Source: Parcubacteria group bacterium (GTDB lineage Bacteria; Patescibacteriota; Patescibacteriia; UBA1558; GWA2-36-10). From it: DNA of 64,000 nt. A program made the position numbers and the translations under genes. Where the stretch lies: NCBI GenBank assembly GCA_003104935.1, contig PQAE01000003.1, positions 9,350 through 73,349 on the forward strand, given 5' to 3'. Below are positions 7,497-54,831 of this stretch, in pieces. Position 1 is the first letter of the stretch. Each line of letters opens with the position of its first letter. The notes under the pieces were generated by a model. The model was not told the DNA's origin. It did not search any database and worked only from the letters and a program-made list of their open reading frames with translations.

Positions 7497-8023
7497 GGCC
7501 TAAATTGAACAATAAGCCGAGTTCTGTATCCTCTGCCTACGGCAGAGGGCGATGATCATCTATCTAGGCCTAGAGTCGCCCCTAGGCTCAAACGACCTAC
7601 CCGCCCTGCACCTTATGGTACAGGGCCAATTTGGTCTTTCACCGGATAGAGTTTACCTCTTTCAGTCTGTCACCAGACTGACGGGTCCGCTAATTATCGG
7701 ACCTTTTCACCCTTATTTTAGTCCATTGCTGGACTAAAAAGGAATATTCTCTGTTGCACTTGTCCTGACCCAGCCATCACTGGCGAGCCGGTTGGCGTTA
7801 CCAATTATCCTTGCTTGTCCGCCTTTGGCGGATTTATGGTGCTCGGACTTTCCTCCCTGAACCACTCACTCCGTTCGGGTATCAGGGCGGCGCCCTCATA
7901 CCGGGTATTTAACGGCCAGCACTTCGACCAGCCGTGTACCCCAGAAAATTCAAGTTTACGGCCAGCCGTGTACCCGAGCGAAGCGAGTGGTTCACGGCGA
8001 TCATCTTGGTCAATTCAGACCTT
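7497..8023 (-). ncRNA. rnpB: RNase P RNA, bacterial type A, with an extended P3
   Basis: Minus strand contains GGGAGGAAAGUCCGAGCACC (P4 5' strand), ACAGAACUCGGCUUAUU (P4 3' strand) and UAAGGGUGAAAAGGUCCG (P10-12). A P2 pairing (GAACCACUCGCUUCG / CGAACGGAGUGAGUGGUUC) and a P1 pairing (GGUCUGAAUUGACC / GUUCAAUUUAGGCC) can be drawn. No ORF; GC-rich against AT-rich flanks. Ends are +/-10 nt. Confidence 0.85.
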
Positions 8024-19516: not shown

Positions 19517-20521
19517 TTATTTTAAGCTTAAAAATAAATTTTCCCACAACAGTTGTGGCGAGACATTGTGCCGCAGTTTATTTTTTATATCCTCTAGAGA
19601 CAACAGACCACGCACCAGTCTATCCTTATCAAATTGCTCGGCCAACAATTCCAACTCGCTTTGGTACATTTGGTTAACCACCGGCCGTTCCAGTTTGATC
19701 CAGAGAATGTCGCGCAAAAATACTTCCAGTAGATCAAGGTAACGCTTAGTCAGGGCACCTAGTTCAAAAACTTTGTATTCCGGATGTTCTTTTTTTAAAA
19801 TACCGAACCATTTATCAATGGTCTGCATATAATAGAAAGTTCCGTGCGCTAATAATTTAATTATGAAATTACAGCTTTTTTTAAAGTTGACCAGCTTGTC
19901 CGCAATCATGGTCAGAGCTAAACCCGGTTTACCGAACGATAGATTAATGATCGTATCTTGCTCCTCGTGTAAAAAATTATAGCTAGCCACCCAGTCGCGC
20001 ATGTCATGGTTATTTAAAGGCTTAAATTTCAATAATTGCGAACGAGACATAACAGTAGCTGGCAGACCTGCCAGAGAATCGCCGATCATGATAATACTGG
20101 TGTCGCGGCCCGGCTCTTCTAGAGTTTTGAGTAAAGCATTAGCACCATAAAGATTGATCTGATCAATACCATAGATCAAAGCCACACGATGCGCTCCGTG
20201 CACCGGAGACAAAGCCAAGCTGTGCAAAAGCTCGCGGACATTATCAATGGATAATTCCTGTTTATTTTTACCAAGCTCATAAACATCGGGATAAATACCC
20301 TTGGTGATGGCCTGGCACGCCCGGCATTTTTGACAGGGCCGGATCTTTTCATCCTGACAATATATAGATTGGACAAAATAGCGCGCAACAAATTTTTTGC
20401 CTAAGCCCGCCGGACCGTAAAACAAATACGTATTGGCCAGCTTGTTTTCGCTTACGGCATTTTGCAAAAATTTCAATTGTTCTCTATGGCCAAAAACAGG
20501 CCAATTAAATTGGTATGACAT
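19517..20521 (-). CDS. holB: DNA polymerase III delta' subunit
   Basis: AAA+ N-terminus LFYGPAGLGKKFVA and Zn module CQDEKIRPCQKCRAC. Confidence 0.75.
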   Translation of the reverse strand: MSYQFNWPVFGHREQLKFLQNAVSENKLANTYLFYGPAGLGKKFVARYFVQSIYCQDEKIRPCQKCRACQAITKGIYPDVYELGKNKQELSIDNVRELLHSLALSPVHGAHRVALIYGIDQINLYGANALLKTLEEPGRDTSIIMIGDSLAGLPATVMSRSQLLKFKPLNNHDMRDWVASYNFLHEEQDTIINLSFGKPGLALTMIADKLVNFKKSCNFIIKLLAHGTFYYMQTIDKWFGILKKEHPEYKVFELGALTKRYLDLLEVFLRDILWIKLERPVVNQMYQSELELLAEQFDKDRLVRGLLSLEDIKNKLRHNVSPQLLWENLFLSLK

Positions 20522-20626
20522 TGACTTAAAAATACCATTTTTTTAGGGCAAAAACAAGACCTGCCTCGGACTAAAATAAGGTTTCAGGAGACAAAAAAAC
20601 AAATTATTTCCCTGAGTTAGCAAATA

Positions 20627-20655
20627 TTGACAAAATATGGTATTTATGATATAAT
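20627..20655 (+). promoter_or_regulatory. Consensus sigma70-type promoter: TTGACA, 17-nt spacer, TATAAT
   Basis: ttgaca at 20627-20632, exactly 17 nt, tataat at 20650-20655. Confidence 0.6.
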
Positions 20656-20700
20656 ATAAATATTCAATAACGTCCTTTTTTCACCTACTGGAGGCTGATC

Positions 20701-20826
20701 ATGCACTGGTACTCTGATTCTACAGTATGGATGATTTTGGCCGGTTTCTTCTGCCTGGTGCACACCACATTGAAGTGCATCCGGCTGTGGGGCGGCCGGC
20801 ATAGAAGACAAATCAACCAGGCTTAG
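20701..20826 (+). CDS. Small hydrophobic 41-aa peptide (MHWYSDSTVWMILAGFFCLVHTTLKCIRLWGGRHRRQINQA)
   Basis: GGAGG Shine-Dalgarno 7 nt before the ATG; consensus promoter upstream; intrinsic terminator downstream; one TM-like segment then a basic tail. Below the 60-aa cut-off of the ORF track. Confidence 0.5.
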   Translation: MHWYSDSTVWMILAGFFCLVHTTLKCIRLWGGRHRRQINQA

Positions 20827-20877
20827 CAAAAGCTACAGCCACCAGACTACTTGAGATCACGCCTCAAGTAACAGAGT

Positions 20878-20902
20878 CCAACGCAGGTTGGATTCTTTTT
20901 TT
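20878..20902 (+). terminator. Rho-independent terminator (CCAACGCAGGUUGG followed by AUUCUUUUUUU)
   Basis: Hairpin followed by a U-tract on the plus strand only. Confidence 0.6.
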
Positions 20903-21326
20903 ATCCAATAATTTTATCCAGCGCTTGATTGACCAGTTTATCGGCAAATTTATTCTGTTCACGCCGCACATGTTGAAAGGTCACTTTTTTGAAAGACTGG
21001 CTCAGATTCCAAACTTGCACAAATAATTTGGCCAGCTCCTTATCTTTGACTTTGTAATTTCTATTTAATTGTTCTACAACTAGCTCCGAATCTAAGAAAC
21101 AATGCAACTCCGTGATTTTATTTTCCAAAGCTAATTTTAAACCGGCAATAACAGCCTTGTACTCGGCCTGATTATTGGTGGTTTCGCCGATATATTCGGA
21201 AACAGTACCGATGGTTTTCGTACCGTTGTACAAGACTGCTCCGATAGCGGCCGGTCCGGGGTTACCCCGCGCTCCGCCATCACTAAATAATCTGTACCTC
21301 GCCCCGCCAGAAATTTTACTATTCAT
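20901..21326 (-). CDS. rnhA: Ribonuclease HI
   Basis: SDGGARGNPGPAAIGAVL...EYKAVIAGL, an RNase H fold with catalytic D and E. Confidence 0.85.
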   Translation of the reverse strand: MNSKISGGARYRLFSDGGARGNPGPAAIGAVLYNGTKTIGTVSEYIGETTNNQAEYKAVIAGLKLALENKITELHCFLDSELVVEQLNRNYKVKDKELAKLFVQVWNLSQSFKKVTFQHVRREQNKFADKLVNQALDKIIG

Positions 21327-31874: not shown

Positions 31875-31948
31875 TCGGGGATCGTCTAGTGGTAGGACAG
31901 CGGCCTTTGGAGCCGTCAACCGGGGTTCGAATCCCTGTCCCCGAGCCA
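31875..31948 (+). tRNA. tRNA-Gln (anticodon UUG), CCA encoded
   Basis: Acceptor stem UCGGGGA/UCCCCGA with discriminator G and CCA; GGTTCGAATCC T-loop; anticodon loop CUUUGGA. Confidence 0.8.
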
Positions 31949-47135: not shown

Positions 47136-47164
47136 TTGACAAAATATCAAATATATGCTATTAT
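47136..47164 (+). promoter_or_regulatory. Promoter (TTGACA, 17-nt spacer, TATTAT) for the high-GC gene at 47252
   Basis: Host-like AT-rich promoter sequence directly upstream of a foreign-composition ORF. Confidence 0.5.
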
Positions 47165-47251
47165 TATATATTCATCGTTCATAGAAACAACTAAATTCCT
47201 GCGAATTCCGTAACTTGGTAACCAAATTGTCCAGCCCTAAGGAGGCTTGCA

Positions 47252-48028
47252 ATGTCCAGCAAGAGTGCGTATAAGCCGGCCGAAATCCGGTCGATCAATT
47301 CCTGGGCCAACCGCAGTATGCGGATGAGCCAAAAGAGAATGACACTCATCGGCATTTTCGGCCTGATCGCACTGCTACTCGGCATGTTCTGCCGGGTGGC
47401 AATCAGTGAAGGAGCTACTCTCCCCGATTCTCTGGAACTGAGGGCTCTGCAGTTGCAGGCCGCTGGAAGAGTTGTCGCGGCAGACAGTCTGCGAAAGGTC
47501 TTTACCGCACAAATCGTTTTGGCGGAGCGCCAAAAAGCAATCCAGGATTCCCTCACTGCCCTTCAGAAAGCCGCTCAGCTGGAGCTGTACCGCCGGCATC
47601 TGGACGCCAAGGTCAAGCTCTGGTCGTCCTGGGATGCCAAAGTCACTCCTCTGCCGATCGATTCGGTGTGGGTCTGGGCCGGCTGCGACTTCGACAAGCT
47701 CAATTGGTTGGCCGCTCGGTATCATATTCAGTACGACATCAAGTCGTCACTGAACGACAATGCGACGCGCATGGCCAATGAGATGAAAGCACGCAAGCAA
47801 TTGCGCACTGAAGTTAGCCGCCAGCTGAGAACCCAGTTGACCGGACTCACCTCGCAGGTGAACAAACTCGAACAGCGCGTGGACGCCTGCGAACAGAACA
47901 TCGCGGCCATTCGAAAAGCCGTGGTGAAAAACGGCTTTGACATCGGAGCCGCCCTCTCCGTCCTGGAGCAGACGGCCGGTGTGGCCTGTGTCAACGCCGC
48001 GCGCGGAAAAGCGCGACAAGATAAGTAG
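47252..48028 (+). CDS. High-GC (about 57%) cargo gene: N-terminally anchored coiled-coil membrane protein of unknown function
   Basis: AAGGAGG RBS 7 nt upstream; one TM (LIGIFGLIALLLGMFCRVAI) then a heptad-rich region; strong terminator downstream; all six frames open, a GC artefact. Confidence 0.6.
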   Translation: MSSKSAYKPAEIRSINSWANRSMRMSQKRMTLIGIFGLIALLLGMFCRVAISEGATLPDSLELRALQLQAAGRVVAADSLRKVFTAQIVLAERQKAIQDSLTALQKAAQLELYRRHLDAKVKLWSSWDAKVTPLPIDSVWVWAGCDFDKLNWLAARYHIQYDIKSSLNDNATRMANEMKARKQLRTEVSRQLRTQLTGLTSQVNKLEQRVDACEQNIAAIRKAVVKNGFDIGAALSVLEQTAGVACVNAARGKARQDK

Positions 48029-53058: not shown

Positions 53059-54711
53059 TCAGGTTCTGCTTCCGATGTACTTGCTGATCCCATCCAGGAA
53101 TCCGGCCGGGAAGGCGACGGTTCCGCCGCTCTCAGCCAAACGCAGGGCGGTCAGTAGACGCATGGCTTCGGCCTTGTCGCCGAGATCCAGACTCTGGTAG
53201 ATGGCTTCTACCTGCCGAACGATGAAATCACCTTCGCCCTTTCCTTGCTCAGCCCGAGCCCGAGCGTACTTGACGGCCGTCTGGATTTTGGTCTCCGCAA
53301 CACGAAGCGCCTTCTGGGCCGCCTCGATGTCGGGTGACTGATTGACGTCCATGATCTGGAAGCGGACCAGGCGCACGCCGGTATGGCGACGGAGATCCTC
53401 AGCCAGATACTGAGGGAAGGTCTCGTAGGTACGCCCTTCCCTGCTCAGATCGACCATGTCGATTTCGGTCAGCAAACTCTGCTGGCGCTCCTCAACTAAC
53501 TGATGGAAGTTGGTGAGACGCGGGTCTTCTGCCGGACCTCCTTCCGGAGCGACGTAAGGTTTGGACGTGATCTCTGTCAGCAACTCCTTGCGGACTTGCT
53601 GTTCGATCTGCGTCTCCCGCTTACGGTTGATGTCGGCCACATTCCCCAAGTAGGGATTTTTGACCTTGGCTTCGTTGTTGGTGAGCTGACGGGTGTATTC
53701 CGTCAGTGCTCCTTCGACATAGCGGGCGATCAGTCCTTGGAACTTGGCATCGTCTGAACGGTCTTCGTCGGCCAGGCGCAAGAAAGGTCTGGGATCGTGA
53801 CGCATGACGGTCAGCTTGTAGGCGATCTGAATCGGCGGTCCAGGTTCGGTGCCGACAGTCGCCTTACCGTTTTCATCTACATCCAGCAGTTCCGGACGGG
53901 TTGGGATGAACTCGGTCTTCAGTGCCGTGCCCTTGGGACCGTTGATTTCCAGCTCCTCGCAGAAGAGCTCGGCGATGTCAAAACCGGGAAACCAACTGGG
54001 AATCAGGATCAGGTTCAAACCCTCATCCATCCAGCGCCTATTGAGCATCAGCCGATTCCACAGCCAGCTGGGCTTGAGGCCCATCTCTCTGCGGATCATC
54101 TGCTCAAAGTAGCGCTCTTCCTCGTTGAGTGCCTCGGACTCCTTCTCATTGGAGTCGGTGTACCGGATCTTGGACAGATCGGGCAAACCATAGCGAGGCT
54201 TCTTGAAGAAGATGACTACCCAACGCTCACGAAGATTAGGGTTGTAGAAACAACTCATCAAGTAACCGACACCGGCTCCCATGATTCCGGGAAGCCATGA
54301 CCAGGCTGAAGTGTGCCAGATCCACCACAACAAAGAGCCGTGGAAAACCAGACATCCAATCAGTCCCGGCCAATGCAAACCGGCCTTGTTCAGATCTTTG
54401 CCGGTGAGAGCGTCAGTCCTAGCGTTCCAGGACTTCGGTACCAGAACGGAAAAGAGCCGCCATAGTCCGAGGCCAGAAACGACCAGTGTCAACAACCACT
54501 GCCACCAAGAAAGATGCCTAAGCACCCCACTGATGTAGATCAGACCGATGATCAACGGGACCAGAATGGTCTGTCCCCAATTGATCTTTTTCGCCTTGAC
54601 CAGATTGCCAGTGGTGATGAAGCCGATGAGCAGAAGTAGCGCGAGTACCGGCCAGTGGTAGTAGTGATTCCAGTACCACATGACCTTATCCCAAAAGAGT
54701 TCGAACGACAT
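53059..54711 (-). CDS. SPFH/band-7 (flotillin/stomatin-like) protein with Trp-rich multi-TM N-terminus; high GC (about 57%)
   Basis: SPFH core (IPSWFPGFDIAELF...IQIAYKLTVMRHDPRPFLRLADE...FQGLIARYVEGALTEY) followed by a coiled coil; AGGAGG SD. Overlapping ORFs in all frames are GC artefacts. Confidence 0.65.
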   Translation of the reverse strand: MSFELFWDKVMWYWNHYYHWPVLALLLLIGFITTGNLVKAKKINWGQTILVPLIIGLIYISGVLRHLSWWQWLLTLVVSGLGLWRLFSVLVPKSWNARTDALTGKDLNKAGLHWPGLIGCLVFHGSLLWWIWHTSAWSWLPGIMGAGVGYLMSCFYNPNLRERWVVIFFKKPRYGLPDLSKIRYTDSNEKESEALNEEERYFEQMIRREMGLKPSWLWNRLMLNRRWMDEGLNLILIPSWFPGFDIAELFCEELEINGPKGTALKTEFIPTRPELLDVDENGKATVGTEPGPPIQIAYKLTVMRHDPRPFLRLADEDRSDDAKFQGLIARYVEGALTEYTRQLTNNEAKVKNPYLGNVADINRKRETQIEQQVRKELLTEITSKPYVAPEGGPAEDPRLTNFHQLVEERQQSLLTEIDMVDLSREGRTYETFPQYLAEDLRRHTGVRLVRFQIMDVNQSPDIEAAQKALRVAETKIQTAVKYARARAEQGKGEGDFIVRQVEAIYQSLDLGDKAEAMRLLTALRLAESGGTVAFPAGFLDGISKYIGSRT

Positions 54712-54802: not shown

Positions 54803-54831
54803 ATTATATCACATATTTAAAATATTGTCAA
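54803..54831 (-). promoter_or_regulatory. Perfect consensus promoter (TTGACA, 17-nt spacer, TATAAT) for the SPFH operon
   Basis: Minus strand: ttgaca (plus tgtcaa at 54826-54831), 17 nt, tataat (plus attata at 54803-54808). Confidence 0.55.

Follow-up and report, generated by a model that had tools for sequence, protein, structure and literature searches.

A candidate gene for a small membrane peptide with a highly structured mRNA in the rnhA–holB junction of a Patescibacteria genome

The stretch of DNA analysed here (64,000 nucleotides, hereafter the window) carries at 20627–20902 a compact cassette on the strand opposite to the gene row recJ-rnhA-holB. From its sequence we give about even chances to its being an accessory gene for a small membrane peptide, with translation gated by folding of the mRNA and with a possibly toxin-like product. 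The protein of the flanking holB is 100% identical to one of an NCBI MAG labelled Parcubacteria group bacterium. The nearest named relatives of the host are Candidatus Komeilibacteria, which places it in the Patescibacteria (Candidate Phyla Radiation, CPR); the cassette would have been inserted into the rnhA–holB junction of such a genome. The consensus promoter is expected to produce an mRNA of ~240 nt ending at a strong intrinsic terminator. This mRNA would close into a rod, in which a 14-bp helix joins the leader with its Shine-Dalgarno (SD) sequence to the 3'UTR just upstream of the terminator. Since the helix lies over the SD, the full-length transcript should be translated poorly before it is opened or processed. 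Translation would yield a peptide of 41 residues that has one helix and a basic tail at its C-terminus and probably inserts into the membrane. The sequence elements, the predicted fold, the patchy distribution and the positional orthologues for small hydrophobic peptides are results of the analysis; transcription, translation, membrane insertion, gating and any toxicity of the cassette are predictions.

The promoter (20627–20655, +) is of the sigma-70 type and has the full score of 12/12: TTGACA (20627–20632) and TATAAT (20650–20655) are separated by a 17-nt spacer, which contains an extended −10 TG at 20647–20648. Two perfect 12/12 promoters were observed on both strands of the 64 kb against 0.03 expected from dinucleotide shuffles, so that the promoter pointed out in the preliminary description is present and lies far beyond chance. 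The site is also the top promoter match in the 12 kb scanned. The transcription start is predicted near 20662, and the arrangement of signals supports the reading of the cassette as a self-contained transcription unit.

Other promoters of the window are of the same kind. The second perfect 12/12 promoter, also with the TG extension, is found at 54803–54831 (−), and the stretch downstream of it, to ~54700, is also of note; the promoter is followed by a leader of ~70 nt ending in a T9 run and then by AGGAGG and an ATG near 54711. The element may be a leader or attenuator, or else a short sRNA, that precedes a gene for a membrane protein. Promoters nearly identical to that of the cassette occur at 47136 of the window and in one of the related loci (L002). 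The unit at 47136–48028 (+) has the promoter TTGACAAAATAT...TATTAT and a similar ATTCA..GTTCAT leader, and it drives a GC-rich ORFan of 258 aa (a transmembrane segment and a coiled coil), for which Pfam and PHROG give weak coiled-coil noise only; it looks like another accessory cassette with the same type of promoter. Promoters of 11/12 are found upstream of the RNase P RNA (bacterial class A, 179 bits; 7502–7898, −) and of the tRNA-Gln(UUG) (31875–31948, +), which alone in the window were hit by Rfam or ARAGORN.

The intrinsic terminator (20873–20902, +) was found by the terminator scan. Its 10-bp stem AGAGTCCAAC/GTTGGATTCT at 20873–20896 contains the CCAACGCAGGTTGG core, carries a GCAG loop and passes into a run of seven T (20896–20902), the first of which closes the stem; the hairpin and U7 tract of the preliminary description are confirmed by this. 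The T-run shares bases with the stop codon of rnhA, a convergent gene (RNase H, 141 aa; 20901–21326, −; Pfam RNase_H and RVT_3). On the other side the cassette is divergent from holB (DNA polymerase III delta', 334 aa; 19517–20521, −; Pfam DNA_pol3_delta2). A conserved motif, AAAAATGGTATTTT (extended −10, TGGTATTTT), is seen at 20522–20560 (−) of the window and in all insert-bearing loci. It ends 7–9 nt before the holB start codon, and holB may therefore be leaderless or near-leaderless, with its own promoter, wherever the operon is split.

An antisense ORF of 61 aa had been proposed as a possible mark of an antisense RNA. The ORF exists (20644–20829, −), but nothing speaks in its favour: its start codon is TTG, it overlaps the sense promoter, and no promoter serves it. 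No promoter-like site was found on the minus strand within 20500–21000, that is, no antisense promoter for the cassette, and the proposal of an antisense RNA gene finds no backing there. The search for a cognate antitoxin RNA gene gave neither a minus-strand promoter nor a match to an Rfam antitoxin family. The terminator scan of the region listed no good minus-strand terminator for rnhA: the hairpin of the cassette terminator, when read on this strand, is followed by GUUACUUG. This is a poor U-tract, and transcription from rnhA may therefore continue into the cassette in antisense direction. Such read-through from the convergent rnhA would be the only candidate source of an antisense RNA.

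The leader (20662–20700, +) contains the SD GGAGG at 20690–20694, and the ATG is at 20701; both are as described before, except that the spacer (CTGATC) has 6 nt, not 7. The 41-codon frame from the ORF listing runs from this ATG to TAG (20701–20826, +; stop at 20824–20826) and encodes MHWYSDSTVWMILAGFFCLVHTTLKCIRLWGGRHRRQINQA, exactly the peptide quoted previously. It is uncalled by any gene caller in the source assembly, and in the identical contig of the Logan assembly of SRR5381729 no gene is called between rnhA and holB. A single helix of moderate hydrophobicity and a basic C-terminal tail make up the peptide, whose net charge is +4. The tail thus agrees with the preliminary description, whereas the segment called transmembrane-like there is only moderately hydrophobic (Kyte-Doolittle 15-residue maximum of 1.76) and borderline for a transmembrane helix. 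Modelled by AlphaFold2 without an alignment, residues 5–38 form a single helix (mean pLDDT 78.5), which is compatible with a helical membrane peptide but not strong evidence for one.

Evidence that the ORF of the window is itself coding is weak. Codon log-odds trained on 35 long ORFs of the window give −0.7 bits for the ORF and +3.1 for the in-register antisense frame (41-codon samples of native genes have 15.9 ± 6, shifted frames −31 ± 15), so the codon statistic does not decide between the strands. The codon usage is atypical for the genome (GC3 of 0.68 vs 0.48). The local GC of about 52% noted earlier is real and above the coding mean of 45% and the intergenic 30–38%, but the excess is modest only, since several nearby coding stretches reach 49–50%. 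From base composition, the chance of an open frame of 41 codons after an SD-linked start in the window is 0.13.

Searches for relatives of the peptide gave nothing. No homologue was found in a word-indexed search of 5.8 billion protein clusters, and a full HMMER scan of 1.84 billion representatives returned a single match (P0087), a spurious repeat translation. In exact look-ups neither the 41-aa product nor the 61-aa antisense product was on record. Pfam, NCBIfam, PADLOC and PHROGs gave 0 families each, and there was no profile match to the known type I toxin families (Hok/Gef, Ldr, Fst, TisB, Ibs, TxpA and others) as far as they are modelled in Pfam, NCBIfam and PADLOC. The check for small-protein homologues suggested in the preliminary description therefore came out empty in the protein collections searched; small ORFs are systematically uncalled in such collections, so this absence is weak evidence. 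At the DNA level, blastn against phages matched the promoter only, viral contigs contained no exact match to an ORF segment or to the terminator of one related locus (L015), and there are no paralogues of the cassette within the 64-kb window.

The predicted transcript (~20662–20903) folds with −84.5 kcal/mol and z = −4.2; from 20685 onward z is −5.1, and without the terminator −4.9. Random 188-nt windows taken from these 64 kb (n = 78) have z of −0.65 ± 1.19 with none as low, and the fold of the opposite strand is weaker (z = −2.9). The predicted fold is a rod-like three-way junction closed by pairing of the 5' and 3' parts. Its core, according to both MFE and centroid structures, is a GC-rich extended hairpin inside the ORF (20740–20800, +), which is already formed in nascent transcripts of 140 nt. 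The closing helix of 14 bp pairs 20686–20700 (UACU-G-GAGGC-UGAUC), in the leader, with 20855–20870 (GAUCA-C-GCCUC-A-AGUA), in the 3'UTR, at pairing probabilities of 0.84–0.99. It covers the SD and the spacer up to the base before AUG, and its 3' strand, the anti-SD GAUCACGCCUCAAGUA (20855–20870, +), lies two bases before the terminator stem. The 5'-3' duplex has −19.8 kcal/mol, with p = 0.01 vs dinucleotide-shuffled 3' segments. As an alternative the anti-SD strand can be read to form the local hairpin CUUGAG-AUCACGC-CUCAAG, and this would free the SD.

Occlusion of the SD as such tells nothing. In nascent transcripts the SD is partly paired (0.6–0.7), and with shuffled downstream sequence it is still paired ~78% of the time. 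As its rate of pairing is much the same in shuffled controls, SD sequestration was rejected as evidence on its own.

Such a fold raises the main and serious rival of the peptide gene, namely a non-coding structured sRNA: the ~240-nt transcript would act as RNA, and the SD, the ATG and the 41-codon frame would be incidental or parts of helices. We regard this as unlikely on balance, though well worth keeping in view. A very strong and lineage-atypical fold (z near −5, beyond all 78 random windows) speaks for it, and the strongest promoter together with a strong terminator would suit an abundant RNA. It also sits well with codon usage and GC3 that give no coding support, with the ~13% chance of the open frame when taken alone and with a peptide that has no homologues. 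An RNA of a known family is not seen here. At gathering thresholds Rfam found only the RNase P RNA and the tRNA-Gln in the whole window and nothing overlapping 20660–20903; at E ≤ 10 the only overlap in the search of 20400–21000 is with a viral pseudoknot family, over 26 nt and by chance (16.8 bits vs a gathering threshold of 32). A match of the transcript to 6S or SRP RNA had been named in the preliminary description as the finding that would speak against a peptide gene, and no known structured RNA was matched.

The main argument for encoded peptides comes from related genomes. Using holB as the anchor, 18 related loci were fetched. The lineages closest to the window by holB identity are L011/L012 (83%), L013 (76%) and L015/L016 (65%), and in all of them a small ORF is found in the same place and orientation, behind a promoter of the TTGACA-17-TATAWT type and a leader and with an SD ahead of its start codon. 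The −35 element and the promoter position are kept in L011, L013 and L015, and the SD stands there at the equivalent position. The terminator could be compared for the complete loci (L011/L012 and L015/L016), the L013 contig ending inside the ORF; it is orthologous between the window, L011 and L015, with a compensatory change of G-C to A-U at one stem position. The pattern AGAGYCCNNCNCANGNTGGAYTCT occurs in the window at this site only and is also present in L010, L011, L012, L015 and L016. The conservation in related genomes that the preliminary description had asked about is therefore found for the promoter, for the SD with the start codon and for a small hydrophobic ORF, as well as for the terminator in the two complete loci.

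The hydrophobic ORFs encode 53 aa in L011, at least 37 aa in L013 (to the end of the contig) and 60 aa in L015. The alignment of the L011 peptide with that of L015 spans their full length at 21% identity (pairwise E = 0.007), and both have a basic N-terminus followed by two strongly hydrophobic (transmembrane) segments; no homologues were found for either of these two-transmembrane peptides, and Rfam gave nothing above gathering on the orthologous loci. The peptide of the window could not be aligned to that of any orthologue. The chance of an open frame after the SD-linked start is 0.018 for L011 and 0.05 for L015, and jointly with the 0.13 of the window ~1e-4. This joint figure is the main argument that the slot would encode peptides and not RNA only. 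All positional orthologues keep the SD, the start and a hydrophobic open frame in spite of unrelated interiors, which is unexpected if the transcript acts as RNA only. The interior of L011 is AT-rich with a clearly protein-like two-transmembrane peptide, which also speaks against an RNA-only element, and no conserved interior structure can be aligned between the window, L011 and L015.

The folding itself recurs in part. L015 has an analogous 5'-3' helix of different sequence, which likewise ends at the base before AUG (−21.6 kcal/mol, p = 0.05), and its whole transcript folds with z = −4.2. In L011 the whole-transcript z is −3.0; the SD has its partner in an internal CCUCCU, and the 5'-3' duplex does not reach significance. 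The 3' ends of L011 and L015 are identical in 40/41 nt, whereas their holB proteins are only 66% identical, and this suggests cassette exchange or a strong constraint on the scaffold.

The differences between the window and its orthologues allow another explanation, a decaying or neutral remnant: the scaffold of promoter and terminator would be left from a former cassette for a small membrane protein, the interior having been replaced or scrambled and the whole being functionless. The window ORF is shorter (41 vs 53–60 aa), has one weak vs two strong hydrophobic segments, cannot be aligned to the orthologues and has atypical codon usage, and the slot is easily gained and lost. In L011 (~785–830), L013 (~245–300) and L015 (1415–1455) a strong hairpin with a U-run (z = −4 to −6) lies on the operon strand (+ in these loci, the strand of holB) between the cassette and holB promoters. 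It fits a role in stopping transcription antisense through the cassette before holB. In the window the same minus-strand hairpin upstream of holB is degenerate (z = −0.19), as decay would have it. Nevertheless the promoter is perfect (12/12 with TG), the SD canonical and the terminator intact, and under neutrality these would decay first; a fold with z near −5 and a specific 14-bp 5'-3' helix are not products of random drift either. We consider a remnant improbable.

The rnhA–holB junction is by these comparisons an insertion hotspot, and the unit of the window a lineage-specific insert. The two genes are adjacent, with a spacer of 30–50 nt, in the P0008 contig and in L018/L019, and a short empty spacer separates them in L001, L004, L005 and L014. 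Elsewhere the slot holds other cargo: an ORF of 71 aa in L003 and L009, a small Cys-rich ORF on the operon strand in L006 and L007, an alpha/beta hydrolase in L017 and three successive small cassettes in L015 and L016. In L002 (3510–3872, −) and L008 the slot upstream of holB is occupied by a family of ORFans of 108–120 aa with a promoter nearly identical to that of the window. These two proteins are homologous (E = 3e-17), with C-terminal halves 46% identical, and have no match in Pfam, NCBIfam, PADLOC or PHROG. The idea that the window ORF is a truncated form of this protein was rejected: BLASTP and tblastn gave no significant similarity, so the promoter alone is alike. The cargo proteins of the hotspot in general had no convincing match in Pfam, NCBIfam, PADLOC or PHROGs and are all ORFans.

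With an empty slot or different cargo in L001–L009, L014 and L017–L019, the element is accessory, and a housekeeping RNA (6S, SRP) is excluded at this locus. A divergent housekeeping RNA of rod-like shape (6S, SRP or tmRNA), for which the 5'-3' closure and the strong promoter might be quoted, is for this reason extremely improbable, the more so as no Rfam family was matched at E ≤ 10, ARAGORN found no tmRNA in the window, and the three-way junction has no 6S-type central bubble. A bacteriocin-like reading was dropped because no transporter or immunity gene is nearby, and a leader peptide or attenuator because there is no downstream gene on the same strand.

The architecture of the cassette would be expected to work like that of a type I toxin mRNA. 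Descriptors of these mRNAs are SD/anti-SD pairing, a terminator stem-loop and long-distance 5'-3' interactions (T1TAdb, PMC8594479), and gating by SD sequestration and 5'-3' interaction is known for hok/Sok of E. coli plasmids and for aapA1/IsoA1 of Helicobacter pylori (PMC8594479; PMC6733600; PMC9841398). Like type I toxin genes, the cassette is a stand-alone unit of the ~200–400 nt class with its own promoter and terminator, it has an ORF of less than 60 codons, whose predicted peptide is a cationic single helix of moderate hydrophobicity, and it is accessory, with patchy distribution and fast sequence turnover. The resemblance extends to the mRNA, for which a very stable fold is predicted, closed by the pairing of the SD and leader to an anti-SD not far from the 3' end; a structured mRNA with a 5'-3' interaction is thus found in silico, the SD pairing alone not being above shuffled controls. 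Unlike in type I systems, no antitoxin RNA gene or antisense promoter was found for the cassette, its peptide belongs to no toxin family (Pfam, NCBIfam, PADLOC) and it has no paralogues in the window. Membership in the type I toxin-antitoxin systems is therefore not established: the antitoxin was looked for and not found, and there is no family match. The preliminary description had assigned the unit to the architecture of type I toxins or small membrane regulators. The architecture stands; with no antisense promoter, homologue or codon support, the function of toxin or regulator is a resemblance and not a membership.

Small membrane proteins of chromosomes are the second class to compare. Proteins of less than 50–60 aa of this kind are missed by gene callers (for Gram-positive bacteria see the review PMC10730256). 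The cassette product resembles them in its size class, single predicted helix, basic tail, own SD and in being uncalled. Small membrane proteins with known roles are usually conserved in a genus and often stand beside or inside the operon they regulate; unlike these, the cassette is a hotspot ORFan with an mRNA whose predicted structure greatly exceeds the genome background. Abundant rod-shaped RNAs (6S RNA and small SRP RNA) likewise have a strong promoter and terminator, and the fold predicted for the cassette is, like theirs, a closed rod of ~200 nt. In contrast to them the cassette has no Rfam match, is not conserved across relatives and folds into a three-way junction, and it has a canonical SD, AUG and ORF, which are conserved in position in the orthologous cassettes.

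The peptide-gene reading can be extended to the junction as a whole, although we put this forward as a doubtful conjecture. The junction would hold hypervariable cassettes for toxin-like small membrane peptides, with a scaffold that is conserved or exchanged and an interior that turns over; silencing would be achieved by 5'-3' closure and by read-through from recJ-rnhA, with no dedicated antitoxin gene. If this is true, the cassette would be the first type I-like toxin module in Patescibacteria, with a 3' extension of the operon as the antitoxin. Among the papers searched, none names a type I toxin together with Patescibacteria or CPR.

To our knowledge, almost nothing is known about small proteins and RNA regulation in the CPR. 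If the peptide is real and membrane-active, small peptide genes of the type I-toxin-like, RNA-gated sort would extend to this radiation, and the cassette would add a new sequence orphan to a known kind of small-gene module, in a phylum with none described. If the transcript is non-coding, it would be a new and very stable sRNA of narrow distribution. In genomes as reduced as those of the CPR, an accessory gene with strong expression would hardly be idle. Being a single-genome ORFan analysed in silico, the cassette has at present the value of a lead and not of a discovery. The rnhA–holB junction is a reproducible hotspot at which CPR genomes gather ORFan cassettes with consensus promoters, and it could be mined systematically.

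Repeats are seen in several of the loci. In L008 the sequence between the terminator of the 108-aa ORF and rnhA contains a GC-rich, hairpin-rich element of ~230 nt with no ORF and no Rfam match, which may be an ncRNA or a repeat element. In L011 the region from the cassette terminator to rnhA (~250–420) contains MITE-like inverted repeats TCGTCATTCCCACGCAAGTGGGAATCC ... ATTCCCGCTTTCGCGGGAATGACAG together with GGGGG/CCCCC hairpins. L001, L003 and L008 have CCCCC/GGGGG hairpins much like these, and it is possible that they are mobile repeats which make the junction a hotspot.
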